A stretch of 57,377 bases of DNA, filler included, from Catajapyx aquilonaris (Eukaryota), in assembly GCA_000934665.2 (NCBI GenBank). It is 2 parts of 2 records of this genome, joined end to end, with 100 filler letters (N's around TTAATTAATTAA, not from the genome) between each part and the next. Parts side by side here need not be neighbours in the genome. Positions count along the whole stretch, not along the records: positions 1 to 28,566 come from JYFJ02004899.1; 1 more part is not named here. One strand, written 5' to 3'. The translations under genes and the position numbers were made by a program. Of the stretch, positions 1,699-52,232 are shown piece after piece; position 1 is the first letter of the stretch, and every line of letters starts with the position of its first letter. Under the pieces are notes generated by a model. The model saw only the letters and a list, made by a program, of their open reading frames with translations. It was not told the DNA's origin and did no database searches.

Positions 1699-2492
1699 AT
1701 GTCAGGATTTACTAACCTCCACCTTCTGTTGCATAAGGTCCCTTACTCTTCTGTACAATTCTGACCACAAGAAGCATCTCATGGAGTCTGTGGTGTCCAG
1801 ACTGGAGTCTCTGGAAGAGAGGGTAACAATGGGAGTGGTGTCCAGGCTGATAGAGTGGTTCATGGAAAGGAGAAGGACTGGAGGCATGCATGCCACAGGA
1901 TCGAGCAGGGTATGGTCCGCAACACATCAGTCACAGCAGAGATTATTTCAGTTGCGTAAAAGCCATGATCATGTGTTTGGCAAATTGTAACATGTTGATG
2001 TCTTCGCAGATGAACAGGATCGGCTTCATGTCTCAGTTGGTGTGGAACTCCAGCCCACTGGAAATCCTGGAATCACAGCACCTGAAGATGGAAAATTTCA
2101 TGAAGGACTTGAAAGCAATTTTCACGTTGCAGTACTGGTGACAGGCTCTTTATTACATTTTTTTTAAAAGTACTGATGGAAAATTGCATATTGTATCTGT
2201 CAAAGGGATGATGATGAGGGTAGCTATTTTTTGCATTTTAATTTTAATTATTAATTAAATTTTCCAATATTTTGTTACAGTTATGCCAACTTGTACCTGG
2301 TGATTTCTGCACATTTTCTTGCCTACTGCGACATGTAGTGAAATGTGTTTGTCCCTCAGGCCCGTAGCTGCTTCTGGAATATTGGAAGGCAATGAACCAG
2401 ATGAGGTGGACGTAAAGCCGGCTGTAGCCTGTGACCCATTATTGACCACTGACACTGGGTCAGGTACAATGAATCTTAGAAAACTTACTACA
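1699..2492 (+). pseudogene. Degenerate older paralog of the tandem zinc-finger family (N-terminal exons only: ~1699-1909, 2010-2137, ~2360-2492)
   Basis: NLHLLLHKV..DHKKHLMESVVSRLESLEE aligns by eye to DLELMMETVFDIKRLLLEDVLPRLASLEH of the exon-1 domain. ILEGNEPDEVD...|gtaagtaa aligns to exon 4 ILNNSEPVQVD...|gtaagtaa. The 2010-2137 exon has the same 1->0 phase as exon 3. Frameshifts and stops present; no finger exon follows. Confidence 0.55.
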
Positions 2493-3441: not shown

Positions 3442-3856
3442 TATCTTTCCATCATGTCTCTCATTTGACACACTAACGACTACTCAACCGTTCGTGTCAG
3501 GCATGCTACAGTACTGCGTCGCAACCTAGAAGGCATACGTGGCACAGAATAGGTAAGTGATCCAGCAGACATGGAATCGTTTGGAAGCCATAATTACATG
3601 AGCTATGATATTTTTGGGGTTTCCAAGTCTCCGTTGTTGCCAGAGCTGGTTGATATGATTCTAAACTTGCATAGGAGGTGTAATAATTAGCCCTGGAGTT
3701 CCACCGGTTCCATGTGTGTCTATTATCTTTCCATCTCGGCTCTCAGTTGACAGAGTAATGACTACTCAACCGTTCATGTCAAGAAGTGTACTGCGTCGCA
3801 ACCTATAGAAATCCTACGTGGCACAGAATAATATGTGAGTCATGGGGTCATTTGGA
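3442..3856 (+). repeat. Imperfect direct repeat (~3442-3585 and ~3724-3856) of the IR upstream region plus start codon
   Basis: Shared TATCTTTCCATC..GACTACTCAACCGTTC..GTACTGCGTCGCAACCTA..TACGTGGCACAGAATA..CATGG(AA/GG)TC(G/A)TTTGGA. Confidence 0.85.
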
Positions 3857-5854
3857 TGTGTGTTGGTGTGGCTGGTGACGATTGTGAGAATAGTGTTGGG
3901 AAATAACATTAGCCTGGACAAGGATTCGGAGGAGGACGAGTCTGTGTCCCGACTGGTGGGGAATGTCCTTCAGAGGGCGGATCTGGCTGAATGCACCCTG
4001 GTCACAGCCACCGATTCGGTCTCCTTCAGCGTCCCGATTCAGAAGCTCCTGATGGGACACTCGGACAGGTACCTGCCCAGCTTCCCCCTCCGGATGACCA
4101 CCTCCAAAAAACACTCGTTTGAGGACTACCCCTGGCTGGTCAGACAGGACCAGATGCACGACTTCACCACTGTCCCGCCTCAGCTCCTGTCCCGTCTCTG
4201 GCCCGGACTCTCCTGCACTTTGCACCTGTTCATGCCCACCCATGTCCACGCTCTGCCACCACTCGTCATGCACGCAGCCTCCTTGGTCAAGGTGGCTCCA
4301 GGGGAAGATCGATTCATCATTCACTTCAGGACTGATGGTCACACTCATCCTCATCATGCTCAGGAGGTAGGAGAGGTGCACAGGATCATGGCCCACTCCC
4401 CACCCGCCACCTCCCTCAGGCTAAAGGTCATGGTCACAGGGGATGGTCGGATAAAGGTGGACACGGTCTGCTTCCACTGCGCACAAGGAGGACACCCCCA
4501 AATACTGCCTCTTGGAGTGTTCGATCCATCAGATGAAGATCATGGAGACATTGTGAATCTCTTCTTTCGAGACTACGATGTCAAGAGGATGAATGGAAGG
4601 GTAATCAGAATTTCTTTCTACGTAGACATTGACTTGCCAGCTGCGAGGAAGCAGAAGGAGGCTGAGGGTGAGTTCATTATTGACTTGTACCCGAGAATGG
4701 CCATATTTGCGGAAGGTGCTCTACGCGGAAAAATGGAGTACACTACGGAGGAATTTCGAGTGGAGCTGGACTTTCGTTATTCCAACGGAACCTGGGGAGG
4801 GTTGGTGGGTAGTCTGGTGCAGAACAAGACCGATGCCTTACCATGCATTTTATCTTCGGATGAATCGTACTCATTCCTTAATATTCCCCAACCTTACATG
4901 TTCGCCTTTGGAACGGGCTTGACAAGGATCCCTCGAAGAATTGTGACCTGGAAGGTCATCTTCATGCCTTATCCTCTCTTGGTGTGGATGTTGATTGCAT
5001 TCAGCCTAATCACACTGTTTATTGCCTCATTTTATATATCCAAACGGAGACTTAACGCGACCAGTACTCTTTCATTTTCACAATCAGTCGGCCTCATTTT
5101 GCGAGCTCTGATGGACCAGGATATAAGCTTCAACACGAATAAATATTCACTCAGTTTCACTGCATGTATGCTCATGTTTGTGACCGTAATCACCACCGGA
5201 TACAGGGCCAAACTAGGGTCCTTCCTGACCTGGCCCCCAAAAGAATTTGTTCCAACCACTGGACAAGAAATAATAGATTCCAACTGGAATATGGAAGCGG
5301 ATATGTTAAACTATCTCATCCTAGGTCACTACTGTAAAATGGCTCAGGATCCCGTTTTGGTTGATATGTGTAACCGCATGAAAATGGGAGGCACTACCCA
5401 GAATTGTCTGCGTAAAACTGGAGATGACAACGTTGTCTGCGTTGGAGTGAGTGTTCTCCTTGAGCAGGAAACCTATCTTCACACAAGCAGTGATGGGACC
5501 TTGAACCTTCAGTACCTCCAAGAAGATAGATTCTCTGCGTATGCCTTTGCCGGTACTGCAAAAGGCCAAACCCAACTGTTTCACATTCAAAGAAAAGTGG
5601 TGGCCCTGGTTGTGGAAAACAATTTATTCGAAACTTGGATCAAGCACGAGAAGTACATGAACTTCCTCCGCAACCTGAGGAGGATCCTACAGGCGGAAGA
5701 GATCGCCGCCAAGACATACGTTCCAGATGAAGTGATGACAACGGTCAAGTTGAGAGCCATCTTCAACATTTGGCTTCTGGGCCTGCTGGGTGGTGTAGTG
5801 GTACTGGCGGCGGAAATAGCTCATTTTTGTCGAATAATGCCTGGTAGAATTTGA
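3842..5854 (+). CDS. Divergent ionotropic receptor (IR, variant iGluR chemoreceptor), intronless, 670 aa
   Basis: Hydrophobic signal peptide; S1 motif NGTWGGLVGSLVQNKTD; M1 IFMPYPLLVWMLIAFSL; pore-loop ILRALMDQ; TTGYRAKLGSFLTWP (SYTANLAAFLT equivalent); final TM LRAIFNIWLLGLLGGVVVLAAEI; short C-tail. Confidence 0.9.
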   Translation: MGSFGCVLVWLVTIVRIVLGNNISLDKDSEEDESVSRLVGNVLQRADLAECTLVTATDSVSFSVPIQKLLMGHSDRYLPSFPLRMTTSKKHSFEDYPWLVRQDQMHDFTTVPPQLLSRLWPGLSCTLHLFMPTHVHALPPLVMHAASLVKVAPGEDRFIIHFRTDGHTHPHHAQEVGEVHRIMAHSPPATSLRLKVMVTGDGRIKVDTVCFHCAQGGHPQILPLGVFDPSDEDHGDIVNLFFRDYDVKRMNGRVIRISFYVDIDLPAARKQKEAEGEFIIDLYPRMAIFAEGALRGKMEYTTEEFRVELDFRYSNGTWGGLVGSLVQNKTDALPCILSSDESYSFLNIPQPYMFAFGTGLTRIPRRIVTWKVIFMPYPLLVWMLIAFSLITLFIASFYISKRRLNATSTLSFSQSVGLILRALMDQDISFNTNKYSLSFTACMLMFVTVITTGYRAKLGSFLTWPPKEFVPTTGQEIIDSNWNMEADMLNYLILGHYCKMAQDPVLVDMCNRMKMGGTTQNCLRKTGDDNVVCVGVSVLLEQETYLHTSSDGTLNLQYLQEDRFSAYAFAGTAKGQTQLFHIQRKVVALVVENNLFETWIKHEKYMNFLRNLRRILQAEEIAAKTYVPDEVMTTVKLRAIFNIWLLGLLGGVVVLAAEIAHFCRIMPGRI

Positions 5855-7970: not shown

Positions 7971-7986
7971 GGCCCTTAAAAGGACC
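7971..7986 (-). promoter_or_regulatory. Histone 3' stem-loop of the H4 copy
   Basis: Minus strand AAAC-GGTCCT-TTTA-AGGGCC-AACAA, about 50 nt after the H4 stop; fits the replication-dependent histone stem-loop consensus. Confidence 0.85.
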
Positions 7987-8034
7987 GTTTGTTTTGAGTT
8001 GAGTTGTCTACTGGTATAGGGTCCACCCCATGAT

Positions 8035-8355
<321 letters not shown>

Positions 8356-8379
8356 TCAAGTTGGCTGCCGTGGTACGAT

Positions 8380-8515
8380 CCGCCTGGCCCACTACAGCAA
8401 GCGGTCCACCATCACCTCCCGGGAGGTCCAGACCGCCGTCGGCCTCATCCTGCCAGGGGAGCACGCCGTCTCCGAGGGGACAAAGGCCGTCACCAAGTAC
8501 ACCTCCTCCAACTAG
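8380..8515 (+). pseudogene. His2B: Histone H2B 3' fragment (pseudogene)
   Basis: [44 protein letters not shown]. Lacks the N-terminal two thirds and has a 9-nt deletion (LAK). Confidence 0.92.
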
Positions 8516-8544
8516 ATTCATCGCCATCTGACAACTAAACAAAC

Positions 8545-8560
8545 GGCCCTTTTCAAGGCC
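8545..8560 (+). promoter_or_regulatory. Histone 3' stem-loop of the H2B fragment
   Basis: AAAC-GGCCCT-TTTC-AAGGCC-AACA, 30 nt after the stop; one stem mismatch relative to consensus. Confidence 0.85.
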
Positions 8561-9219
8561 AACACTTTTATCTGGATGAGATATGCACTTGGTGTATTGC
8601 GATACGTTTTAATTGCAGCTGGTCAAGGCGACTAATAAACTTACAATATTAAAAAGATGCTGTGAAAGGTGAATTCAGTGCAAGAAGCCTGGACATTGCC
8701 AGGCCCAATATATTTACTCCCGCTTTTTCCCAAACTATAACCGGCAAAGTGTACTTAATTTAGTACCGTCAAACGGAGTGAGTGATCCAAAATATCTGTT
8801 TTACGAAGATGCTGTATAAAAGTATCATAATATGTACTGTATGAGTATGAGTATGAAGATAGTAACCCACAATTGGGAAATAATGAAAATAGGCGTTGAA
8901 ACAGGCTGATGGCCAAATGTGCCAGTATAAAGAAATTTTTTCTGGGGACAATGCTGCGTACGAGATTCTAGTGACGAAATGTTGCCCAAACATGGAATAA
9001 CAACGAAGAACCACCATCGACATTTCGGACTGTTGTATTAGTTAGTTGTATGCGCTTTTCCGATAACAGCTGCGTCATTTCATCCCCCCAATTCAATATG
9101 GCGTCTTGTCTCTCTGTCAGTTCTGAAAGTGCCCTTCGGTTGTTGAGGAGTTTCTCTTCGGTAGAACCGGGTTGGATCGCAGCATCTGGGTCTCGCAAGT
9201 TGCGGAGAAGGAACAAGCC

Positions 9220-12200
9220 ATGGCCCCCGTGGACCTCGAGCTGATGATGGAGACAGTCTTTGACATCAAGCGTCTCCTGCTGGAGGATGTGCTGCCCCGA
9301 TTGGCCTCACTGGAACATATCCCACCTCAACTGGAGGCACTGGAGGAAGGTGTGGGCGCCCTGAAGGAGTGGGCCTGGTGTGGCGGGTGCAGAGTGACCA
9401 GTGAAGAGGAGGAAGAGGGTGAGTTGTTGTTGACCGGGTTCTGAGACACAAGGTGCGTGACTGGAATGTGCTTTATTATCTCTTCAGGTGCAGACGACAA
9501 TCCAGGCGACTTGCCTTCTGAAGCCGCCACTTCAGGCAATGCCCCAGTTGAAAGTGGAGATTCTGCGCCGCTGGGCAACACCAGAGTTGAATCGGACCAT
9601 TGCCAGACGGAAGAGTTAACAGTGGAGGATGATGAAGGCCCACAGCAGGGTTACGAAGACACTGCAGCTGGAAGTTCGTCAAACCCAAGTATATGTCATT
9701 ATATGCATTATTATGGTTTATTATGCATTTATGAATGAAAGGTTTGATGAGTGAGAAATATTGAAGTACTGTGTGTACTTAGGACTATTGTATGGGCCAG
9801 CCACTTGTGATCGCCAAATGAATGACACTGGCCTATATTTTGGGATTGTTATTGACACTTGCACCCTGGCTGAGTTTGTTCTTCTTAATTTTAGAAAAAA
9901 ATTCAAAATGATGATTATTTGTCTACAGATGGACAAGAAAGCACTGGTTGTGAGTTTTCATCCGATGGAAACATCAATTATTGTGGAGATATAGATGGAG
10001 TCACAGGCCAAACTGAGGGAAACTCTCACTCTGAAGCAGAAGTTGGAATTTCATTAAACACTGTGATCCAGGTAAAATGCTTTTCAGGTTGTTTGGCTGC
10101 CAGTGGATGAACAGCTGGGTAAATAGTCAGTGGAATTAGGAGGAGCAACTGATTATGCAGTATGGCTAAACACCAGCAATGTGCAATCAATGCTCAGCTG
10201 TGATACATGGTGTCCCAAAATCAGTTGGGAAAGTTCAACTGATCTTGTGGTAAAACCTTTGGCATTTCTGCATCAGCATAAGATTTTGCAGGATACTGCT
10301 GTTCTGGTTCCATCTGTCAGATTATGTCACGGTCAATTACGGTCTATATAAAGCAATTTAATCCTTGGTTTTTTTTCTCCAGGCCCCTGCAACTGAAATC
10401 TTGAATAACAGTGAACCAGTTCAGGTTGATGGGATTGTATGTGAAGCAAATGGCTCAACATGTGACTCAGCCAGTGGCTCCAAGGGAAGTGTAAACAGGA
10501 GGGAGTATCCAGCTGTAAGTAACATTGTTGGAACAAATTGGAGACTTATTGATCCTCTTATTCTTAGCAAAGTTGGGCCACATGAAAAAAATGTTTCTGT
10601 GAGCATTGGCTGGCCATGGACTATTGTCAATTCTAAAATGACTGGTAAATTAGAAGGCATGCAGTAACAGCTGACTTGTGAACATTTGGACACCATTCCC
10701 GACATCTTAGGCCTAAGGTTCACAGAGATCTCGTCACATTAGCATAATAACAATATAGCACGAGTGGGCAGCGATTCATAAAGATATTTCATCTGCACTA
10801 TGATCTCTCATGTCCTAGGGCGCTGCTTCTGAAGTGTCAGACAACTCTGAACCAAATGAAATTGAGGACTTGCTGTCCACTTCTGATGACACATCCAGTG
10901 AAAATGCAAGCAGAAGAAAGACCAGGAAGAAACGAGGATCTGTATGTATCATTGTGGGGAAAAGGGGCAACATTTTCTCTAATGGGAAATGCCTGGACAT
11001 AATGATTGAGCACAAGTGATTATTATCAGAAAAGTCATTTACATGCGTCAATTTCTTAAGAACTGAAAATTGACCTTTTGTAGGAGCAAAGGATTGAGTA
11101 CAATAATTAAATATTACATGACTGATGTTGGCAAATTTCAGGCTCCTGCATATAAGGACTCAGAGGACAGTGACCAGTCCTACTTGCCTGATGAGAGTGA
11201 CTCTGGGGAGGAATTCATTCCTCCATTTCGCTCAGGTGACGAGGCCTCTACTCTCCGAAAGATGAAGAGAAAGAAGCGAAAAGGAAAGGATCCAGCTATA
11301 AATGACATGGTAGGAACATCAGGGGTAGAATTTTAAAATTTTTGTCCAGATGCAAAGTTTGCACTGTAGACTTTCATCTGGAGTGTGCAAATCCGGGACT
11401 TGGAGTACTTAATTTTTAATTACAGGGTGTAGCCATGTTTAAAAGCAGAGCCAATTGCTCATTTTGGAGTGCAGATGACAATTTTGGAATCCAAATTGCA
11501 CCTTTGCATCCGAATATTTCGACCTCTAGAACATACACGACTTGCAGTAATATTTCTAATCCAGATACATTATTTCATTTCCTAGACTACTGCTTCTGAG
11601 GTCTTAGGCAGCTACGAAGCAGGTGAATTAGATGACCAGGATTGTGATCCGAAACCTTGCTCCGTGAACCCGGTAACATCGGAGCCACTCCGGAGCAGTA
11701 AATCCGGGTCAGGAGCGAGCGGAGCAAGGGTTCGGTTCACAACCCTGGTGGTGACATGCTGCACATTGCAGATTAGTTCTGACTAATAATTATACATCAA
11801 ATGAAAGAGAAAGGGAGTAGAATGCGCATAATTTTTTTCTCTCGCAAATGCACCCAGAAAAACGTGTCGGATTTCATCAGTCACATGTCCCAGAATTTGG
11901 GTCCATTAAAATTAATGGTAATTCAGCAAACATATCTATTCTTTTCTCTCGAGCCATGCATGCTGACGAAGGATTGAAACTGAACATATTGAATATTGTA
12001 TGGGTCACAACTCATGTCACCAAATATGGTCGCTCTTACGCAAATACATCACTAATTGTTGGGGTTTGCACACTTGGACATGTTACTGAGCATTTGACGG
12101 ATGGAGTGCCACACATGTTTCTATGAGTGCATTTTTCAGAAAAACAATTTTCATAGGAGCATTCTACCAGGATGTCTCTTTCATTTGACGCATATGTTGA

Positions 12201-13465: not shown

Positions 13466-14275
13466 TTCATCTTGGATTATCAGGAACCATTTGCATGAAA
13501 TGTTTTGCTGGGAAGAGTACAAATGCTCCATGAGGAGTTCCTGTTGATTTTAACCCCAAAATGTCAGCATATTGTAATTTGAAAAGTCTTTTCCCACCTA
13601 CATAGTATTCTTGGTGCTTTTCAGGGCAAGGATAAGCTGGAAAAATCTGAAAGAAAGACTCATCAGAACACCTCTTCCTTACACGGAAATGACAAAGGGC
13701 CTTCACCTGATTTGGACGCCATAAAAAAACAGGGGCAAAAAAGAACCAAGAAGCATCAGTGCATGCTGTGTTATTTCCAGGCTCAAAGGAAGAATGACCT
13801 TGCACGTCATCAGGTAGTTCACACTGGTGACAAACCATATGGTTGCAATGCTTGTGACAAGAAGTTTAACAGAAAGGAAACCTTAAAAAGACACAATGAC
13901 TCTGTCCACATTGGACTGAAGCGTTACTCTTGTGACTGGTGCAGTAGAAGATTTTCTCTGAAAGAAACGCTGGAGGATCACAAGAGGACCCACACTGGTG
14001 AGAGGCCATTTTCATGCATGGTGTGCAAAAAGTCCTTTGCTACAAGTAGTAACTGCAGGCAGCACATGAGAACTCATGATGTTCAAAGAAAGTTGCACTC
14101 ATGCTCCCATTGTAACAAAGCATTCACACGGAAAAGAGACTTGATTTCACATATGAGGACACATACTGGTGAGAGGCCATATTGTTGTGATGTATGTCAG
14201 AAGAGATTTAGGGATGGAAGTGTATTGTTGCGCCACAAGAGAACCCATACAGGAGAGCACGGGACCGCCACTTGA
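9220..14275 (+). CDS. C2H2 zinc-finger gene copy A (6 fingers). Predicted exons 9220-9418, 9488-9688, 9929-10071, 10383-10514, 10819-10941, 11142-11309 (cryptic donor), 13625-14275; ~538 aa; may be a pseudogene
   Basis: GT-AG exons homologous to copy B with open frame; TGEKP-type linkers. Original exon-6 donor lost, exons 7 and 9 not found, exon 8 (from 11586) disrupted by a MITE, finger 7 removed by a net 49-nt deletion. Confidence 0.7.
11320..11528. mobile_element. Old MITE in intron after exon 6 of copy A
   Basis: Ends CAGGGGTAGAA / TTCGACCTCTA (imperfect IR) flanked by GAACAT on both sides; internal GGAGTGCA-type repeats. The right half is also present in copy B (~19450-19590). Confidence 0.5.
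11637..11747. mobile_element. 111-bp MITE (hAT-like, 8-bp TSD) inserted into exon 8 of copy A
   Basis: TIRs CAGGATTGTGATCCGAAACCTTGCTCCG / CGGAGCAAGGGTTCGGTTCACAACCCTG; flanks TAGATGAC / GTGGTGAC. Copy B has the empty site GTGATGAC at ~20337. Confidence 0.85.
13200..13465 (+). mobile_element. Copy-A-specific insertion ending in AATAAA plus (TAT)n, resembling a 5'-truncated non-LTR retrotransposon tail
   Basis: Absent from the homologous intron of copy B (~21070-21095). AATAAA at 13371 is directly followed by the triplet tail. Confidence 0.45.
13378..13465. repeat. (TAT)n microsatellite, ~29 units
   Basis: Directly visible; explains the poly-I, poly-N and poly-L ORFs. Confidence 0.97.
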
Positions 14276-17418: not shown

Positions 17419-20400
17419 ATGGCCCCCGTGGACATGGAGCTGATGATGGAGACAGTCTTTGACATCAAGCGTCTCCTGCTGGAGGATGTGTTGCCCCGAT
17501 TGGCCTCACTGGAACATATCCCACCTCAACTGGAGGCACTGGAGGAAGGTGTGGGCGCCCTGAAGGAGTGGGCCTGGTGTGGCGGGTGCAGAGTGACCAG
17601 TGAAGAGGAGGAAGAGGGTGAGTTGTTGTTGACCGGGTTCTGAGACACAAGGTGCGTGACTGGAATGTGCTTTATTATCATTTTCAGGTGCAGACGACAA
17701 TCCAGGCGACTTGCCTTCTGAAGCCCCCACTTCAGGCAACGCCCAAGTTGAAAGCGGAGATTCACCAGTGCCTGTGGGCTACATAAAAGTTGAATTGGAA
17801 CAGTGCAAGACGGAGGAGATCACAGTAGAGAATGAAGGCCCACAGGGCTACGAAGACACTGCAGCTGGAAGGTCTTCAAACGCAAGTATGACACTATGAA
17901 TTATGCTCTATTATGCATTTATGAATGAAGAAGCCTGCCAAATGAATGACACTGGCATACATTTTGGGGATTATTATTGCTTACACCCTGGTTAACCGTT
18001 TCTCCTTAATTTTAGAAGAAAAAAAAATACAAATTAATGATTATTTGTCTACAGATGGACAAGAAAGCACTGGTTGTGATTTTTCATCTGATGGAGACAT
18101 CAATTATTGTGAAGATATACGTGGAGTCACAGACCAAACTGAGGAAAACTCTCACTCTGAAGCAGAACTTGGAATTTCATTGAACACTGTGATCCAGGTA
18201 AAATGCTTTTGATGTTGTTTGGCTCTCAATGGATGAACAGCTGGGTAAATAGTCAGTGTAATTAGGAGGAGCAACTGATTATGCAGTATGGCTAAACACC
18301 AGCAATGTGCAAGCAATGCTCAGCTGTGATACATGGTGTCTCAAAATTAGTTGGGAAAGTTCAACTGATCTTGTTGTAAAACTATTGGCATTTCTGCATC
18401 AGCATATGATTTTGCAGGATACTGCTGTTCTGGTCCCACCAGTCGGATTATGTCACAGTCAATTATGGTCTATATAAACCAGTTTAATCCTTGCTTTTTC
18501 CCCTAGTCCCCTAGATCTGAAATCTTGAATAACAGTGAACCAGTTCAGGTTGATGGGATGGTATGTGAAGCAAATGGCTCACCATGTGGCTCAGCCAGTG
18601 GCTCCAAGGGAAGTGTAAACAGGAGGGAGTATCCAGCTGTAAGTAACATTGTTGGAACAAATTAGAGACTTGATCCTCTTATTCTTAGCAAAGTTGAGTC
18701 ACATGAAAAAATAATGTTTCTGAAAGCATAGACTATGTGACCGTGGACTATTGTCAATTCTAAAATGCCTGGCAAATTAGAAGACATGCAGTAACACAGC
18801 TGACTTCTGAACATTTGGACCCCACTCCCCACAGTAGCATAATAATGATATTGATATACCTGCACAAGTAGGCAGTGATTCATGATAAAGTTATGTCATC
18901 TGCACTAAGATCTCTCATGTCCTAGGGTGCTGCTGCTTCTGAACTATCAGACAACTCTCAACCAAATGAAATTGAGGACTTGCTGTCCACTTCAGATGAC
19001 ACATCCAGTGAAAATGCAAACAGAAGAAAGACCAGGAAGAAACGAGGTTCTGTATGTATCATTGTGGGGGAAAGGGGCAACATTTTCTCTAATGGGAAAT
19101 GCCTGGACATAATGACTGAGCACGACAAGTGATTATTATCAGAGAAGTCATTTGCATTCTTCAATTTCTTAAGAACTGAAAATTCACCTTTTGTAGGAGC
19201 AAAGGATTGAGTACAATAATTAAATAGTACATGACTGATGTTGGCAAATTTCAGGCTCCTGCATATAAGGACTCGGAGGACAGTGACCAGTCCTACTTGC
19301 CTGATCATAGTGACTCTGGGGATGAATATATTCCTCCATTGCACTCAGGTGACGAGGCCTGTACTCTCCGAAAGATGAAGAGAAAGAAGCGAAAAGGAAT
19401 AAAGGTATGTTTTACAATAATTCTCTCCCGGGGCATGGCCACTGTATTTTTAATTACCAGTTGTAGCCATGTTTAACAGCAGAGCCAATTGGAGTGCAAA
19501 GTTTGCACTCCAAGGCTAAGTTTGGAGTGCAGATGAGAATTTTGCAATGCGAATTGCACCTTTGCATCAGAATATTTTGACCCCCAGAACATAGAGGACT
19601 TCCTCCCATTTTTTCAGGGATAATGACAATTTGTGGATTTAGTGTGTATTTTTTTATTGCATTGCCATGATTTCCCGCTTAATATTCCAGGTCTGTGGAA
19701 CTGGAGTCTCAGATGATGGAGGGGGAGCGAAGGATGCACCATCCTCATGTGAACCAGCTGGATGCCCAAGTGAAAGGTTGACCAGAAAAGCTACTGTGAG
19801 TAATTTTCTGGTAATTTATTGGATGCTTTCTTAATTCTCTAGAGTCTAGAGTCTAGATTAGCATGTGGAAACCTTGAAAGTGAAGAGTTCTCTGTTTTAT
19901 GTACCCTCCTTGCTGCTGGCAGGCACTCCCTGACAAGTATGGAAATGGGAAATGATTCTTTTTGAGTTCACCAGGGCAATTATTGAATAAAATATCCTTG
20001 CTGGAGTGGATCATTGAAGAGACCAAGTAAAGGGATAAGGTGTGCTACCATGGACAAGTAAAGGATATCTTCTTCATATCTTGAAGTAATTTTTGAATAA
20101 TTATTCACAAGGTCTAAATGCTCCATCCTGTCCTGCTAGCATTATGTCAGGTGAGCAGTAACTGATACCTTTTCACTTACAGTTAGATGCCATTGACATG
20201 GGAATTAGTTAACATGTGTGACATACTGCTGTGTGCCTAGGCCTTAGCCAGTAATATTATTTTCTAACCCTGATACCGTATTTCATGTCCTAGACTGCTG
20301 CTTCTGAAGACTTAGGCAGCTACGAAGCAGGGGAATGTGATGACATCCTGCCCATTGTAGAGTAGCTTCTGAGTTCTGACTAATAGCTCTTTCCAATAAT

Positions 20401-21961
20401 TCTCACCTTCATCCCACACTCCCTCATATGTTATTATCCACCATTGCATTGAGTTTGGTGGATTTCTGCACCTGGCAATGGCATTGTTGTGACAGTATTT
20501 GACAACATATTGTGAAAATGTACACATGTGGCCTTAGCAGCCATTTACGATGGTAATATTTTCCCAATACTGGTTCATACCCACAGACTACTGCATCAGC
20601 AACTGCAGATAAGTGTGCACCAATAGTGAGTGAGGGGGATGTATCAGCAGCTAAGGAAGCATCATGCGACACAGCCCATTCCTCCAGGAGAAGGGTGAGG
20701 AAGAAGAGACAAATCCATGTAAGCGATATGATATTATTATCATTTACAACTTGCCATGCCGGATAACATTACAACAAGTCATTGGTAGTTTGTGACAGAT
20801 TATTCAATATGCCAATTGCTCATTGAAAGAGGTATTGATTAAAAAATTATTTTGCAAGACTGCTTACACTGGTTCAAATGGTGTAATACAATGGGAGGGG
20901 AAGGTTTTAGGTACATTCATATCATTGGTTACACTTTGGGTGAAATGTTATCTCAATAATTCTGTCGCAATTTATATTGACATGAAAATAAATTCTATGC
21001 CCCTCCCTTTAAATTAAATTAAAATTTTTAAAGGAGAAAAAGTTCCTGGAAATGTTACATGCAGTTATTTACGAACCACAAAACTGAGTGCTGGGATTAT
21101 CAGGAATTTGCATGAAATGTTTTGCTAGGAAGAGTAAAAATGCTCCATGTGGCGAGTTCCTGTTGATTTTAACCCTGACATATCAGCAGATTGTAATATG
21201 AAAAGTCTTTTCCCACCTACATAGTATTCCTGATTTTATTTCAGGGCAAGGATAAGGTGGAAAAATCTGAAAGAAACACTCAGAACACATCTTTCTTACA
21301 CAAAAAGGACAAAGGGCCTTCACCTGATTTGGACGCCAAAAAAACCCAAGAGCAAAAAAGAACCAAGAAGCATCAGTGCATGCTGTGTTCTTTCCAGACA
21401 CAATGTAAGAATGACCTTGCACGTCATCAGGTAGTTCACACTGGTGAAAAACCATATGGTTGCAATGCTTGTGACAAGAAGTTTAGCACAGAGAAAAATT
21501 TAAAAAGACACAATGATTCGATCCACATTGGATTGAAGCGTTTCTCTTGTGACTGGTGCAGTAGAAAATTTTCTCAGAAAGAAATGCTGGAGAATCACAT
21601 GAGGACCCACACTGGTGAGAGGCCATTTTCATGCAAGGTGTGCAAAAAGTCCTTTGCTTCAAGAAGTAACAGGAGGAAGCACATGAAAACACATGATGTT
21701 CAAAGAAAGTTGCTCTCATGCTCACATTGTAACAAAGCATTCAAACGGAAAGGCAACTTGATTTCACATATGAGGACACATACTGGTGAGAAGCCATATT
21801 GTTGTGATGTATGTCAGAAGAGATTTGGGGATAAAAGCGTATTTTGGCAACACAAGAGAACCCATACAGGAGAGAAACCATACTGTTGCACTGTATGCAA
21901 TAAAAGTTTTTCTCGGAAATCAGATAGGGACCGCCACTTAAGAATTCACAAACTTGTGTAA
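17419..21961 (+). CDS. C2H2 zinc-finger gene copy B (7 fingers), apparently intact. Exons 17419-17617, 17688-17885, 18055-18197, 18507-18638, 18926-19051, 19255-19404, 19691-19795, 20294-20356, 20587-20718, 21245-21961; ~654 aa
   Basis: GCCATGG start; all introns GT-AG; phases 1,1,0,0,0,0,0,0,0 give a continuous ORF. Last exon encodes seven CxxC-x12-HxxxH fingers with TGEKP/TGERP linkers. Exon-8 donor (GTAGAG) is weak. Confidence 0.85.
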
Positions 21962-23870: not shown

Positions 23871-24563
23871 TAAGTCATTACTTACGGCATCGAGCTGGAA
23901 GGCTACGAAGGTGCGATAACAGGATTGGGAAATCATAATTACAGGAGTATTAGCTCTGTTGGTGCACTGCACCGCAGAACACTGTTCGTCTGGACGAGAT
24001 ATGCCTTTGCTTTGTAAACAGACCTGTGGGTGGGCAATACCTGTACTATTTCTCATGGTCCCACTCACATTATTGTTTCTTATGAAACCAGAAGTGATGA
24101 TGAAAATATTAGTTATGATAATAATGATCTGTGGCGTGATATCATACTTTTTCCTTGCAACGAAGTGGGGTTCATAAGAGGGCTTTCCAGATCTCTGCAC
24201 CAACAAAATGGTAGTGGACGCATAATTATCTGGTATGCCCAACATGCTGGGAAACATGATCAGACATTTTGTCCATGCCGCACAGAGACGTTTCATATGG
24301 TCATTGGGTGAGAAGCTCTGCAGACTTCCACTTATTTTGTCTGTGCAGACTTTGTGATCTCATTAGCTGTGATTAATTCTGCACCCTGATCAAATGTTCT
24401 CTGTTCTTCACATGAGCATGAGCACAACAGCACCTTTCATGTGGTATTCTTGTAGTGACTTGCCATGATTGTGATGGGAGCATGCCATCATCCCATGTAA
24501 AAGCCTCTTCTGTGGATGAGAAGAGTCAAGTGCGACTGAAATGATCGTTACGTACTTCTTTAG

Positions 24564-24720
24564 GAGCCGACAACAATCCAGGCGACTTACTTTCTGAAGT
24601 CCTCACTTCAGGCGATACCAAAACTGAAAGTGGAGATTGAGTTCCTGAGTGCAGCATCAAAGTTGAAATAGACCAGTGCAAGACAGAGGAGCTCACAGTG
24701 GAGAACGAGGGTCCACAGTG
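24564..24720 (+). pseudogene. Isolated exon-2 fragment of the zinc-finger family (copy D)
   Basis: TTTTAG|GA ADNNPGDLLSEVLTSGDTKTESGD*VPECSIKVEIDQCKTEELTVENEGPQ; in-frame TGA. Confidence 0.85.
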
Positions 24721-26183
24721 AATATATTGATAGTTGGGTGGAATTATTGCTTATTTATGGGGTCAGAGGGTCTAATGAAATGGAGAAGTGAAAAAAAAAT
24801 GTAAGGTATACACTCTTGTGAAATGGTGCAAGCAGGGTTATATTTTTGGAACTACAGATAATCTTTCTCTATTCACAAAGCATGGCAAGACGTAATGATG
24901 GAGTGGCACACATCACCATCACAATGTCACCCTTTTGAAAGGGGTAGTGAATGGATGAGGTCAAATTTTCAAGCATTATGCTCAAAGGAAAAAAATCTTC
25001 CCTGCCAATATTTGTCTGTGATGTCATGAAATGCTCCTGAATTACAATGACCATTGGTTACTTCTCAAATTCATTTCAATTTAGCAATTTGATCAGTGCA
25101 TTAATGTAGATTAATTGATGACTTTATGTAATGGTGACCTCATTGTTACAGACTTATAAAATTTTTTGATGTATTGTAATTCGTTTTGCCTTGTAATGAT
25201 AGAATAATTATAACTTAGGTATATTGTAATATGAGTGACAGTTGACGAGTGGGCCTGGTGCGGGGGGTGCAGAGTGACGAGTGAAGAGGAGGAAGAGGGT
25301 GAGTTGTTGTTAACCGGGTTCTGAGACACAAGGTGCGTGACTGATGGAATGTGCTTTATTATCACTTCAGGTGCAGACGACAATCCAGGCGAATTGCCTT
25401 CTGAAGCCCCCACTTCAGGCAATGCCCCAGTTGAAAGGGGAGATTCAGCACCACTGGGCAACACCAGAGTTGAATCGGACCAGTGCAAGACGGAGGAGAT
25501 CACAGTGGAGGATGAAGGCCCACAGGGTTACGGAGACACTGCAGCTGGAAGTTCGTCAAACGCAAGTATGTCATTATGCTTTATTATGCATTTATTGATG
25601 AAGGGTTTTCTGGGTGAGAAATATTGAAGTACTCGGTGTACTTAGGCCTACTTGTACGCGCCAGCCACTTTGAGCCGAATGTTGGCTCTCATGTTACAAT
25701 GTTGCCATGCAGACTTACCATGCTTTTTAATGTGGCACTTTTGAATTACACTGGTTTTTATTGTTTTTAGCATATGCCTAACTGTTGTGGGGCACACACA
25801 GCAGATCATCTGAGACTGAGCTAAATTGAGCGAGCCAAGCCAGGCTAATTTCAATTCAATATTTTTACTTTTACATGTTTTTCTTCGAGCCTAGAGAGCT
25901 ATGGGTTGATAATTATGGTGCTGTAGTTTTCAAATTTTACCTGCAGCAGCAATGTCAAAAACCTGTAAATTACTTTGCAGAGAATCAATAATAATTTATT
26001 GGAGGTGTTTTGTAATGTTGTCCTGAGCAGTTAGTTGTCATTGTGACGTTTGTTCTGTTCAGATGCGTCGAAATGTTATAGTTGTAGGTGATTTTTCACA
26101 AACCAACCCTTCCATGGGCCACTTCAGTCAATTATAAAATTAACAAATTTTTGTCTATTTATGGAGTTGCTATATGTATGGTA

Positions 26184-26753
26184 CAGTGCTGGACACATTA
26201 GCCGTCGCTGAATGTTTTTTTCGAGCGGCAGCGGCGTAAACTTCCAACCCTGGCTGGCAGGCCAATTCAAACATCAGCCTAGGGAGAGTGCTTAGAGTGT
26301 CCTTTCCATTGTTGCCTCTGTTTACAAATCCAGTGAGTGACGCGGACCACTCAGCGACGGGTCTCTTCTGCCTGCTTACACATGATCAGTAGCAAGGGAT
26401 ACGGAGGGAAAAACGTGAAAATAATGATGTTAGAAGCAAGTCATTTTGTGGAAATGTTCCATGCTGGACTCAAAGAAATGTTTTCGTCCACAGCACAGGA
26501 AATATATTCCATGGCTGAGGAGGGGGTGACAATTAAGATCAGGGGTGTGCTAATTGAAAATGCCTCAACTGACGGATTCTTTCGGATTTTGTGTCTTTTA
26601 CACTGTGCTCTATGACGCTAAAAATTTTAAAAGTATTATTTTATTAGTAAGTTTAATAGACAAGTACCCAGCACGCCGCTCTTTCTGCCGGGAATAGACG
26701 GCGATACTTTTAAATACGTTTGAAATTTGTAGTGTAATAGGGCACGGTGTAAT

Positions 26754-26804
<51 letters not shown>

Positions 26805-27591
26805 TCCGGGGTAGTGCTGACCTCATCAGAGGTATGTAGCACGGACCTTTATTTATTTGTTGTGTACATTTGAGCCTTTATATGTAACGCCCGGGCCCAC
26901 GGGCAGAATGACAGGAGGGGATGTGCAAGGTGCAGTGCAATGTCTTAAACGTGGCCATTTTTAGTGAACTCCCCCGGGTGATTTAGTCTGTGGAAATGGC
27001 ACCCGAGACAAAGCCAGAGGTGACCCTGAACTCTGCACGAGATGAAGGGGGTGTCAAACACCTGTATCTTTAAAATCTGAAGCAAAATTGAGCAAGTTTG
27101 AACTTGCATCGTTAGGTTAGACTTTACTGAAGCACACTTGACTACTGCCAGCTCTTTAGCAGCAGAAGAACCTGTGCAAAAAAAAATAAAATGTAACAAC
27201 TGTGCAGGTGTCCCCTACAGGGGACACTCGACATATCTGGGTTAATTGTCACCCCCTCCTCAGCGATGGAATATATTTCATGTGCTGTGGACGAAATCAT
27301 TTCTTTGAGTCTACCATGAAACATTTTCCCAAATTGACTTGCTTCTAACATCATTATTTTCTCTGTTTCCCTGCGTATCCCTTGCTACTGATGATGTGAA
27401 GCAATCAGAAGAGACCTGTCGCTGGGTCGTCTGCATCACTCACTGGATTTGTAAACAGTGGCGACAATGGAAAGGACACTATCAGCACTCTCCATAAGCT
27501 GATGTTCGAATTGGCCCGCCGGGTGGGGTTGCCAGGTTACGCCGCCGCCAGAAAAAAAAACATTCAGCGACAGCTAATGTGTCCAGCACTC
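26184..27591. mobile_element. Non-autonomous Tc1/mariner-like element with ~350-bp diverged terminal inverted repeats
   Basis: Arms 26185-26536 and 27242-27590 are reverse complements; ends TA|CAGTGCTGGACACATTAGC ... GCTAATGTGTCCAGCACTC|TA. Confidence 0.8.
26755..26804. repeat. (AAT)n microsatellite, ~16 units
   Basis: Directly visible. Confidence 0.95.
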
Positions 27592-27594
27592 TAC

Positions 27595-28043
27595 CAGGGA
27601 GCATATACTACATAAGAGGCGCAAACATTCGATTTTTTTCGTCTCTCTGTTTATCGTGTTGCCAAGGCTGGCGGCCATCTTGAAGTGTGTGGTATGTCAA
27701 CGAGGTATAAATAGGGTACAGGCAGGCCGTCAAGGTCCGCGGAGGTCCGCCATCTTTGATGGTTTTGGCTGCCATGGAAATACATGGCAATAACAATTTA
27801 CTTACCCATTTTCCAATATCGAATTCAAATTCGCGCGTGTTCTTGCAGTGTGGGGGTTGCCATGGCAGCCAAAACCATCAAAGATGGCGGACCTTATTTT
27901 TGCCTGTACCCTATTTATACCTCGTTTGCATACCACACACGTCAAGATGGCCGCCGGCCTTGGCAACGCCCTATAAACAGAGAGACGCGAACAACAATGG
28001 CGCCGACAGAAGTTTGCGCCTCTTATGTAGTATGTGCTCCCTG
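27595..28043. mobile_element. Foldback-type MITE (~450 bp, arms ~185 bp)
   Basis: CAGGGAGCATATACTACATAAGAGGCGCAAAC ... GTTTGCGCCTCTTATGTAGTATGTGCTCCCTG; flanks ACTCTAC / ACTTTAC (7-bp TSD, one mismatch). Confidence 0.85.
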
Positions 28044-28566
28044 ACTTTACTGTACAGTAGAATGTACAGTATTCTCAGAATCCTGCCAAATGAATGACAC
28101 TGGCCTATATTTTGGGATTGTGATTGCTTGCACCCTGGCTGAGCTTGTTCTTCTTAATTTTAGAAAAAATACTAATTGATGATTATTTGTCTACAGATGG
28201 ACAAGAAAGCACTGGTTATGATTTTTCATCTGATGGAGACATCAATTATTGTGAAGATATGGATGGAGTCACAGACCAAACTGAGGGAAACTCGTCTCAC
28301 TCTGAAGCAGAACTTGGAATTTCATTAAACACTGTGATCCAGGTAAAATACTTTTGATGTTGTTTGGCTGCCAATGGATGAACAACTGGGTAAATAGTAA
28401 GTGTAATCCTACAAGTACAAGAGAGTTGATTTAGTGTATTTTTTTTTTCTCATTTTTTTCCCTTTTGCTCCTTAGGAAGTGGATGAGCTTCTATACTACT
28501 CAGACTGTATTTATCCTTGATTTATGTAGTATGTGTATTGGAGTTGAGTCCCCCCAAATATCCCGT

Positions 28567-28666
28567 NNNNNNNNNNNNNNNNNNNNNNNNNNNNNNNNNN
28601 NNNNNNNNNNTTAATTAATTAANNNNNNNNNNNNNNNNNNNNNNNNNNNNNNNNNNNNNNNNNNNN
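28567..28666. other. Assembly spacer: 44 N + TTAATTAATTAA + 44 N
   Basis: Exactly 100 nt and symmetric; the 12-mer has stop codons in all six frames. Confidence 0.92.
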
Positions 28667-48909: not shown

Positions 48910-50848
48910 ACGCTTCTCTCTCTGCCTCCAAAATAGCACGTCATCCCATTCCGAGTGTGGATGGAATAGGAGTCGTACTGGCTCCCTGGAGACCTTAACC
49001 ATCGACCTCAACTGAAGCTAGTCTCATTCTGGAACAATGGCGACTCTTTTGGGCCTGTAGTTGCTGCACTGAGCCTAAACACTTAGGCGGAATTAACTGG
49101 CCTACAGGACCACCAAGCACATTCTCATTAAAAATTTTACGACTCGGTTCTTCACGTGTGTCATGCACGGTGGTATAAAATGGCCAAGTGTGTCCTTATT
49201 GCTCTGTCTATACTGGGAGGTTCAGGGCGAAAGCAAACCGACACGAACCGGAACGGTAGAAAGTGATCACGACCGTGCCGAAGTGGACACCCTGCGCATG
49301 CGCGTTGCAACCGAACTACCTGTCAGTATACTAATAATAGGATAACCTGTGACAGGCCTCTGGTCCCTGGAAGGGTCTTTGTAATACTAGACTTTATCCA
49401 CAACCACTATTATTATGAAGGACATTTAAGATAATAAGATAACCCTGAGAAAACATTAATGTTAGGACAGAGCCCCAGAAGTACTTAATTCTGATAATTA
49501 TTTACAAACCTGTATGTTCACATATGCACATGTCAGCAGGAGGAGATACCAGCGCAATGTTGCCATGCAGTCAGATGAACAATTTGTTGCAGGGTGGATA
49601 AGGCAACCACAGAGGCTCATATCATAAGCTGTTGTGTAACTGTCTCATGTAGTAAAGCCAAAGTCACTTCTTGCCCATTTCCATGCACCCTTCAAGCTGC
49701 TATATACAGTGTGGCAGTAAAATTTTAATATACAGTCTCCGGTCTAGTTTAAGTGCTGCATTGCTTTTAAGCCTTGCAATCCCAGTATCATGGATGATAA
49801 CAGACTTGGTTTATATGAGGGAGGTGGTCAGGGACCGCGCTTATACGTATAGCAGGTTTCATTTGAGGACTTTGCTTGAGCATTTATCTGGAAGGTGTAT
49901 ACCGTCTGGTGTATATAGCGGAGGTTGAACATCCTTGAAATAGTTGGCATTCCATTCCGATGGTCCAGTTGGAGAGTTGAGGGAGTGATTTGAGTGCTCG
50001 CTGGTGCAGGCCGTGACCGCAGCTCTCTGCCCCCCGAGAGTGTAAGGTTGATGACTTTACCCCCCTGACTTCTTTCTTTTTCGATGGTTGTGTGGGGGAG
50101 GTAGGAGATAGTATATGGGTCGTAATAAAGCGGGACCCAAAATGCAGTGGGAGACAAAGCGGGCATTTTGTGCCGTTGAGAGCAGGCGATTCTCTCGCAC
50201 AACGAGCGCTGATGACCTTTCTGTGAGGGGCTCCTGGGCCTAGATGCGGACTTGATATTGCCACGGTAAACCCAAATTATGCTAATGATTGCCCACGGCG
50301 CTGGGAATCTATGCCTAGGAGAGATTAATCAAATTATGGTAATGAGAGGTCAGAAGGGAGGGTAGGGGGGTGTACAGTTATCTGCGGATGAGTTTGAGAT
50401 ACTGCGGGCCATGTATTATTAAAGAGTGGAGGGAAATTCGCCACTTAGTCTTGTGACCTTCATTAAAACAACACTGTAATGATCGTCCAGAAATTAATTC
50501 CGGGGGTCCTTACAGGAATGTTATACCGACTAGTTTTGCCGGTGCCATGCTCTAGCTGACTACTATTTAACCAGGTAGCCATTAAAGAGTCAATTACTCT
50601 GTGGCGTTACACATGCAGGGTTTTAGTGACTGATTAAATTTAGTTCAGCCCGGCATTAAGGGATTTGCATGGGAGTTTGATTAGTCACATGGGTGCCTCT
50701 CGATCGCCCACGGATTGGCAGACAGCTCTCAGGAACATTACATCTCTCGGGTGTATCTTTTTTGTGGGAATGTTTTCACCTAGTAAAACATGTGTAATAG
50801 GTCAAAATTGGATGTTTTTTTAATGTGGTGATATATTGTGCGTTTCAG

Positions 50849-51118
50849 GGTGGCGTACCGAGGCCGGGTCAACCTCCGTACCTTAGTGCAGCTCCGGGTG
50901 GATACCCAGGCAGTCAGCTTAGTGGCCAGCAAGGAGCTCAACAGCAATACCAACCCTACCAGCAGAGATACCCGACCCCCACACCCCCAGGGCCGGGTTC
51001 GGGGCCTGGGCTCGGGACGGGTGGGGGTGCGGGAGGCGGCCCCGGGGCTGCCCCTAGTGCAGTAGGAGGGCCTACCCAGGGATCGGGGAGGCCGCCGGGA
51101 CAAGCCATGCCCCCTCAG
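50849..51118 (+). CDS. osa: Isolated internal coding exon (90 aa, phase 0-0), Gly/Pro/Gln-rich, resembling the N-terminal region of trithorax-group Osa/ARID1
   Basis: TTTCAG|GGT...CCTCAG|GTCAGC; 270 nt, GC-rich versus flanks; GGVPRPGQPPY...QQYQPYQQRYPTPTPPGPG. The YxQRYPTP motif is recalled from arthropod Osa. Exon call is firm; gene identity is tentative. Confidence 0.55.
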
Positions 51119-52232
51119 GTCAGCATCTCATTTCATTTTCATTGCATGAACTATATACGTAAGCATTTCAAAGGCGGAGTGATTCATTGGAGAAATTCAA
51201 TTTTCAAAGTCAGAAAAGCGTCTTGCTTCCATTTTCATTTGCTCTCTTGGCTGTACACATATGCACTGATCATGCGCTACATTGCGCCGTACGGTACAAC
51301 CATTTGAAAGGGATTTTAACTGTGGATTGCCTATTTATAGGATATAGGTGTTTTGTGTGGAAAATAGGAACTGACGGAAAACTAAACTTATTTAGAGCTT
51401 ATCACAACATGCAACATCATTTAGCGCATCCACTGACCCAACAAGCCCGCGGTAATTTTGCAAATTTGGTGCAAAATATGTGCCGAAATATCCCTAGTGA
51501 TTTCCAATTGTTGGAGGGTGGGGAATGTGCACCACAGGCTTTTTCGCTAGGAATGGACGTAATACACACATCTTATTTGCATGCATTCACGGTGGAACAT
51601 TCACCCAGAATAATTGGTATTCCCTACCGTTTTGCCCAGGCTGTGTAAATGCAAATGTTAATGATCATGTGTTGTAATTTGCGGCGGTAAGTGGTGCAAA
51701 AAATATGACAATTGGTTTAAGCCTCCATTAATTGTGAAAACTACTTAACATTAATAATTAGCGCATAGTTGTCCATTCAGTTGTTATTGATCAGTGGATT
51801 CATGGAAATGGGATTTGGCCCAAAGCTTATATGACGGAAGCTTCATGCTGTGCTGGGGCTTTTTGGGAGGGGGAGGCCCACAGCAGAGCGCATATATTCA
51901 CGCAGCGATGATTTCGTGTGCAATTTTGCGAAAACGATCCGATGGAACTACACACAAAATGGAGAGCCGGGAGGTCGAAAGCCCCGCTCTGCAGTCACGT
52001 TTAGCGGCGCATCTCAATCAATTGGAGACGACAAGTGTCATGGCGGTAAGCTGATTGAAATCGGCGCACACCAGTAAACCTCGGCTGAGGGTTGATGAAG
52101 CGTTGTCGTTGTGTACACTTGGCCCCCGCAGATTTTATCCGAATGATCGGATACGGGCGATGCAAGATCGGAGCACATCAAAATTATGCAGGTTATTTGG
52201 GGGGGGGGGGGGGAAGCCTAATCATGCGTGTT

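Follow-up and report, generated by a model that had tools for sequence, protein, structure and literature searches.

The window analysed here, a stretch of 57,377 nucleotides from the Catajapyx aquilonaris assembly GCA_000934665.2, harbours a tandem cluster of C2H2 zinc-finger genes whose products begin with a short helical module, the head, on an exon of its own. Large C2H2 families are usually defined by a few heads, namely KRAB, SCAN, BTB, ZAD, and FiNZ. The head described below has no match to KRAB, SCAN, BTB, or ZAD and recurs in many clusters of the genome, mostly in front of finger arrays.

The zinc-finger cluster and its surroundings

All features of the cluster lie on the plus strand. 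Exon 1 of copy B (17419..17617) encodes the helical head (residues 6–53), a CxxC, and an acidic tail, and ends at a phase-1 GTGAGT donor. Translation of 17419–17616 yields the 66 residues that the first-pass annotation had assigned to this exon, followed by G|GTGAGT. The head contains an RhxxhE motif (R27–E32, 17497..17514) in the g-a-d-e register and a degenerate, Gln-bearing second copy of it at residues 37–42, which the alignments trace to a 10-residue duplication. The CxxC (C54–C57, 17578..17589) follows directly after the helix. The exon is not a chance open reading frame, as all of the first 15 copies examined end at the same phase-1 GTGAGT donor and change in length only in-frame.

The hand-built model of copy B comprises 10 exons with AG/GT ends throughout, 654 open codons, and seven C2H2 fingers at its end. 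Exon 2 (17688..17885) is an acidic linker common to other family genes and bears one psi-K-x-E SUMO-type motif (residue 99). Linker exons 3 to 7 are modelled at 18055–18197, 18507–18638, 18926–19051, 19255–19404, and 19691–19795, and this region (18055..19795) is acidic with basic tracts. They are followed by a predicted exon 8 (20294..20356), exon 9 (20587..20718), and the last exon (21245..21961) with the seven fingers. In composition, the linker holds 22% Asp+Glu, basic tracts, and one SUMO-type motif. In the copy B model, the linker between head exon and finger exon is spread over eight exons, not one.

Contigs that bear on splicing come from one public run of unrecorded kind, X1. One contig spans 17394–17607 with 0 differences, and others join 18197 to 18926, 18638 to 18926, 19795 to 20587, and 20718 to 21245, all at boundaries predicted in the same step. 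The last of these joints links exon 9 to the finger exon, and the third skips exon 8, the frame being open with or without it. The joint between exons 1 and 2 is absent among the joints listed for X1, where the four downstream joints are found. Within the limits of a single run of unrecorded kind, these contigs show that copy B yields spliced forms in which exons 4 and 8 can be skipped.

Copy A is a close counterpart. Its exon 1 (9220..9418) is 98% identical to that of copy B and differs in one residue, and its last exon (13625..14275) carries six C2H2 fingers. Fingers of both copies are recognised by the Pfam model zf-C2H2 (E 1.7e-28 for B, 7.6e-21 for A) and are connected by TGEKP-type linkers. 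Of the 13 fingers found in the window, copy A contributes six and copy B seven, each set confined to the last exon, as had been claimed. The copy A model is open over 538 codons when the repeat-interrupted exon near 11586 is left out; with the initial choice of exon 7 it meets a stop at 337, where an inverted repeat is inserted. This short inverted-repeat element (11637–11750) lies inside the counterpart of exon 8, whose normal donor is gone, and its high contig depth suggests a common repeat.

The remaining copies are incomplete. The copy C remnant (25245..28342) retains the 3' end of exon 1 (25245–25299; the last 18 codons only, with unrelated sequence in front), exon 2 (25371–25565), and exon 3 (28197–28342), and is cut at its 3' end as well because the contig ends at 28566. 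An orphan relic resembling exon 2 (24559..24718) is 79% identical to exon 2 of copy B. At 1.7 kb, a diverged head of the CxxC-less subfamily III (1739..1909) has neither the start present in its relatives nor a finger exon and is probably a relic. It is a true but distant family member (hhalign E 7e-4 to subfamily I) with four closer relatives, lacks a CxxC, and is followed by no finger array before the next head; other members of its subfamily do have finger exons. The distribution of exon 1 reported at first, in copies A and B, in part in C, and in diverged form at 1.7 kb, was borne out.

Several unrelated features share the window. An RNA polymerase Rpb11-type gene occupies 821–991 and flanking exons (RNA_pol_L_2, E 6e-19). 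An intronless ORF of 671 codons at 3839–5854, with a weak Lig_chan match (E 0.015), is likely a divergent ionotropic receptor. At 8035–8515, two degenerate histone pieces are fused back to back, one H4-like on the minus strand and one H2B-like on the plus strand; they have weak histone-fold Pfam matches and probably represent a rearranged relic. Near each of them lies what we take to be a histone-type 3' stem-loop (about 7972–7990 and 8543–8562). The artificial spacer at 28567–28666 consists of two N runs around TTAATTAATTAA. The sequence after it is another contig and is therefore not a neighbour of the cluster. It includes, at 50801–51304, a Gln/Gly/Pro-rich exon-like stretch with no Pfam match, reminiscent of osa/ARID1.

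A large family of heads with probably exchanged finger exons

A search of the genome (285.6 Mb in 20,583 contigs) with the head recovered the copy C remnant along with 19 full matches, and weak matches led stepwise to more subfamilies. An iterated profile over 578,894 bases from 33 contigs collected 79 heads, so that the head is clearly present beyond this locus. A sixth subfamily contributes 8 further matches, two of which were opened and are heads. The census is a lower bound because it was seeded with single heads, and its figures count places instead of genes because some contigs carry near-identical copies that may be alleles of one another and only the best candidates were scored. Profile comparison establishes homology between the window-type heads (subfamily I) and those of the distant subfamily IV (probability 93.9%, E 1.5e-7).

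A finger array precedes the next head in 51 of the 79 cases, which upholds the view of an N-terminal module on its own exon tied to tandem C2H2 exons in many clusters. For another 15, the available sequence ends within 6 kb, and 13 (13 of the 64 assessable) have no array by the strict pattern, some of them with decayed fingers. Head and array alternate strictly on five multi-gene contigs. Different subfamilies occur in the same tandem arrays on C433 and C4936, and C1945 carries five heads of subfamily II. Three near-identical subfamily I heads (L079, L080, and L016, on C4448, C2326, and C6093) have no finger array within the 9–17 kb available, followed by shared repeat-like DNA; they are possibly alleles or duplicates of a single broken copy. 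Additionally, three heads on C433 (L171:2804-3502, L167:8796-9290, and L166:9348-9767) have transposase pieces downstream instead of fingers. These are Tc5/CENP-B-type HTH (E 2.6e-18) or Cys-rich transposase C-terminal pieces, with one weak DDE_Tnp_1_7 match. The Cys-rich pieces are presumably of piggyBac type. Capture of transposases by heads of the KRAB and FiNZ kind is described for tetrapods (10.1101/2020.05.07.082677).

The core common to all subfamilies is a helix of about five heptads that ends near a conserved Trp. The CxxC, originally regarded as part of the defining domain, occurs in only 29 of the 79 heads, namely in 17 of the 19 from subfamily I and in all 12 from subfamily II, and in none of the remaining 48. 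As 50 homologous heads do without it, it is rejected as the hallmark of the family, and it is the helix, not the CxxC, that defines it. In subfamily II, the two inner residues of the CxxC vary four ways and both Cys are kept; in the single in-frame subfamily I copy without the motif, both Cys are gone together. Conservation of the Cys may partly reflect recent ancestry, since their codons hardly vary within a subfamily. The CxxC would have been added later in two of the subfamilies and probably acts as a metal clasp where the helix ends. In subfamily IV, each of the 33 aligned heads (e.g., L120:1498-1629) carries a Cys at a core d position, a different one from that of the Asn described below. 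If the heads were trimers, this would form a layer of three Cys and a second route to a metal site.

Head and fingers evolve under different regimes. Heads are under purifying selection, and base-contacting finger residues diversify. Pooled pairwise dN/dS of the heads is 0.42 in subfamily I (16 distinct sequences among 18, without one frameshifted copy), 0.59 in II (8 among 12), and 0.26 in IV (30 among 34), these values and the following ratios being pairwise, non-independent counts and not a formal test. At the four base-contacting finger positions, pN relative to overall pS reaches 1.31 in 19 of the 27 subfamily IV arrays, 2.08 in 12 arrays of I and II, and 1.47 in three window-type arrays, compared with 0.56, 1.00, and 0.67 at other helix-region finger positions of the same three sets.

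The two ends of the genes also disagree in ancestry. In the head tree (50 rows with subfamily IV thinned, and 42 columns only), the window heads group with C1014:139 (SH-aLRT 97), and exon 1 is 89% identical between them. The finger tree (30 rows of at least four strict fingers each, subfamily IV thinned) instead places the window arrays and C5907 beside two genes with CxxC-less heads (97/96), and C1014:139 falls with the other arrays of I and II (100/97). Likewise, exon 10 is 80% identical to the genes with CxxC-less heads over about 600 bases and 66% identical to C1014:139 over 212. A single group of all arrays from the CxxC subfamilies was rejected with p-AU 0.013, in a test of 24 rows that left out one long branch and addressed a group named after the tree had been inspected. 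Because the head and finger trees disagree, the window genes are probably chimeric, pairing a CxxC head with a finger exon of older origin, and the pattern suggests that exons have been swapped.

Comparison with catalogued domains and known families

Exon 1 matches no Pfam family at E 10, and 15 heads searched against Pfam gave three families only, all weak and unrelated. The profile check of the 66 residues suggested by the first annotation therefore returned no significant known domain, and its statement that the head matches neither KRAB nor ZAD agrees with Pfam. BTB and SCAN matches were likewise absent from the Pfam searches, in line with the single-helix models. A Foldseek search with the single-helix model gave no match, and the best ESM Atlas scores, 0.83, provide leads only. 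No homologue outside this genome emerged from word-seeded searches with exon 1 (68 candidates) or with a 20-head alignment (7,999 candidates). A profile search of 1.84 billion representatives returned 6 hits, all of them repeated generic coiled-coil segments in unrelated proteins. The fingers retrieved generic ZNF proteins only, at 51% identity or less, and none of 120 proteins from this search had the head (best E 0.13). As the finger search also lacked a close relative, the collection probably does not sample this lineage, and the lack of homologues is no evidence that related species are without the head. Literature searches covering few subscription journals brought up no paper about a head of this type by title or abstract start. 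Judged by sequence, the head is an uncatalogued N-terminal module of a lineage-restricted, large C2H2 family.

ZAD proteins are the natural comparison among arthropod-type families. Here as there, an N-terminal module, self-associating in ZAD and probably so here, a linker, and clustered fingers expand in tandem in a lineage-specific manner (PMC7913770, PMC12649048). In ZAD, four invariant Cys are described as binding Zn within each monomer, with a long helix after them, and the domain dimerises (PMC7913770); the head in question is one helix with 0 or 2 Cys after it and has no PF07776 match. True ZAD genes exist separately in this genome, with 9 matches over the cut-off; together with one 7tm_6 match just over the cut-off, they point to an arthropod and perhaps a hexapod. 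In the ZAD genes L052–L061, the profile matches over the second half only, apparently owing to an intron in mid-domain, and several are tandem on C2790 and C5848. The presence of ZAD genes in the genome, and the fact that ZAD likewise pairs Cys with an amphipathic helix ahead of finger arrays, would fit a ZAD that degenerated to a single CxxC and a single helix. The order is reversed, however, with CxxC before the helix in ZAD and after it here; comparison with the genome's own ZAD exons gives an hhalign probability of 0.4% (E 0.16), and most heads have no CxxC. A ZAD remnant is thus largely refuted and, in our estimate, extremely improbable.

The KRAB and FiNZ families offer another parallel, as they too combine a short conserved head on its own exon, fingers in one last exon, birth and death in tandem, and diversifying contacts (PMC10547256). 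The present family differs in having no KRAB (PF01352) match, eight linker exons in copy B, and a head of coiled-coil type. FiNZ is described as an acidic sequence of 28 residues in cyprinid fish (PMC10547256), from which the longer, helical head in this ZAD-bearing genome would differ by description. This parallel raises the reading of the head as mainly an effector that recruits a corepressor or chromatin factor, with self-assembly being secondary. A head that stays constant in tandem clusters where the finger contacts change fast repeats the KRAB/FiNZ pattern (PMC10547256), an acidic tail and a SUMO-type motif follow the head, and DUF3669 alone is also reported to repress weakly (PMC6923878). 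The regular a/d core over five heptads, flanked by Arg-Glu pairs, is nevertheless what self-assembly would lead one to expect, surface residues differ strongly between subfamilies, and there is no sequence likeness to KRAB; a primarily recruiting role hence seems improbable.

The nearest functional likeness is DUF3669 (PF12417), found in amniote KRAB proteins such as ZNF746 and ZNF777. It is an N-terminal, L1-derived coiled coil with RhxxhE that stands ahead of a C2H2 array and forms homo- and heterotrimers (10.1101/2025.03.01.640934, PMC6923878). Both systems therefore share a helical head with RhxxhE and a C2H2 array after it. The differences are a length of about 5–6 heptads here against 10, the lack of a KRAB here, and the dynamics, DUF3669 genes being few and slow-evolving and those of this family forming dozens of fast-changing tandem copies. 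PF12417 has no match in the genome at E 1 and none in the Pfam searches of the heads, so that the relation is a likeness of function, not membership. By this analogy, the head probably works like DUF3669.

A helical head and its probable assembly

AlphaFold2 models the window head as one helix over residues 6–53 (mean pLDDT 85) with the CxxC in the loop after it, and a shorter paralogue as one helix over 6–42 (pLDDT 90). The heptad-like helix proposed earlier is accordingly recovered in spite of Pro26, Pro35, and Pro36. Relative to the short form, the window head has 11 additional residues, mostly the 10-residue duplication, and three prolines. The family register places Arg at g, hydrophobic residues at a and d, and Glu at e.

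Two features bear on the number of chains. Heptads of DUF3669 type with RhxxhE are present, in strict form in 36 of the 79 heads (19/19 in I, 12/12 in II, 4/5 in III, 0/34 in IV, and 1/9 in others) and in loose form in 76. All 33 aligned heads of subfamily IV have Asn at a d position, as do 9 of 9 others. Both RhxxhE and Asn-at-d layers are described as marks of parallel trimers (PMC5940361). The strict motif also arises in 2.5% of shuffles of the window head and is for that reason suggestive, not proof. PDB profile matches are weak (best E 7e-4) and confined to short coiled coils, mostly GCN4 adaptor segments, many of the entries being listed with three chains. Since RhxxhE and core Asn are trimer-type signatures, a homotrimer appears more likely than the dimer envisaged by the first-pass annotation. 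The two-chain Cys4 zinc site suggested there presumes a dimer, and the signatures point to a trimer. The trimer is a reading of sequence motifs, and against it, the strict motif is short and missing in 43 of the 79 heads.

A dimer deserves consideration of its own. It would be a parallel homodimer whose two CxxC share one Zn in a Cys4 clasp as in CtIP, making the head a functional substitute for ZAD. SCAN heads are dimers, and two CxxC would provide a clean Cys4 site; the six Cys of a trimer give no simple Cys4 site, which is the main point in favour of a dimer. The joint loss of both Cys in the sole intact-frame copy without them fits as well. Furthermore, ZAD heads are reported to be dimers (PMC7913770), and CtIP holds one Zn per two chains through a CxxC in a parallel dimeric coiled coil (10.1101/2021.03.05.434060). 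CtIP resembles the head in joining a CxxC to such a coiled coil, and its inter-chain Zn is described as not needed for assembly (10.1101/2021.03.05.434060). It differs in being a dimeric DNA-repair factor whose coiled coil flanks the motif on both sides; in the window head, the helix ends at residue 53, before the CxxC, and an acidic linker follows. No sequence match to CtIP was seen in the Pfam or PDB searches. Together with the 50 of 79 heads that have no CxxC and with the trimer-type RhxxhE and Asn-at-d, this makes the dimer the less likely reading.

A further proposal concerns origin and is compatible with the trimer. The head could derive from a retrotransposon, through capture of the trimeric coiled coil of its ORF1 protein, in the way that L1 gave rise to DUF3669. 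L1 ORF1p is described as having RhxxhE, an Asn-at-d layer, Cys core layers, and stammer insertions (PMC5940361). The heads share RhxxhE and Asn-at-d with it, and subfamily IV has its d-position Cys in all 33 aligned heads; the motif set is the same as in L1 ORF1p and DUF3669. The clusters moreover take up transposon pieces, as on C433 with its Tc5/CENP-B-type HTH and transposase C-terminal piece behind three heads. On the other hand, the heads come with no RRM or CTD and no sequence match to ORF1p, and such features recur in unrelated trimers. Genome searches with the heads gave family-type heads, including two weak outliers that proved to be heads when opened. PF12417 is without a match in the genome, as is PF17489, whose positive control was silent too, and no ORF1 protein was among the 6 library hits. 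Such a capture is accordingly judged unlikely.

The explanation we favour, at roughly even probability, is that the head is a short parallel coiled coil that bundles zinc-finger proteins, probably into trimers, with the CxxC likely being an add-on metal clasp of two subfamilies. Three heads would zip through their a/d layers with bridges between Arg (g) and Glu (e), and the Asn core layer would set state and register in most subfamilies. The long acidic linker would let three finger arrays reach separate DNA sites, giving more avidity or bridging of sites, an effect shown for proteins with DUF3669 or ZAD. The Cys that follow the helix would bind metal between chains and stiffen the helix end, which prolines and glycines may weaken in the window subfamily, and would be dispensable for the basic design. 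Exchange of heads and finger exons between paralogues would allow one head type to serve changing DNA specificities.

The overall design is familiar, and the function of the head is a proposal; what is new here is that the subfamilies are linked and that only a minority of heads carries the CxxC, along with the signatures of trimer type, the splice evidence, and the discordance between head and fingers. A bolder and rather doubtful extension would be that an invertebrate lineage evolved, independently, a large family of trimeric zinc-finger factors. Swappable coiled-coil heads with differing Cys metal sites (two subfamilies with a CxxC at the end of the helix, another with a Cys3 layer in its core) would be mounted on fast-evolving arrays and transposase DNA-binding pieces, giving a combinatorial code of homo- and heterotrimers by which DNA would be bridged at three sites or transposons be controlled. 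Natural variants with and without Cys exist for a peptide of 50–60 residues, which makes state, metal use, and partner choice cheap to test. None of the libraries searched contains the head, although it occurs at no fewer than 87 places in a single genome, which has ZAD genes as well. Should it form trimers, DUF3669 would no longer be the only independent example of trimeric zinc-finger factors, and this second one would belong to a family that is actively expanding.
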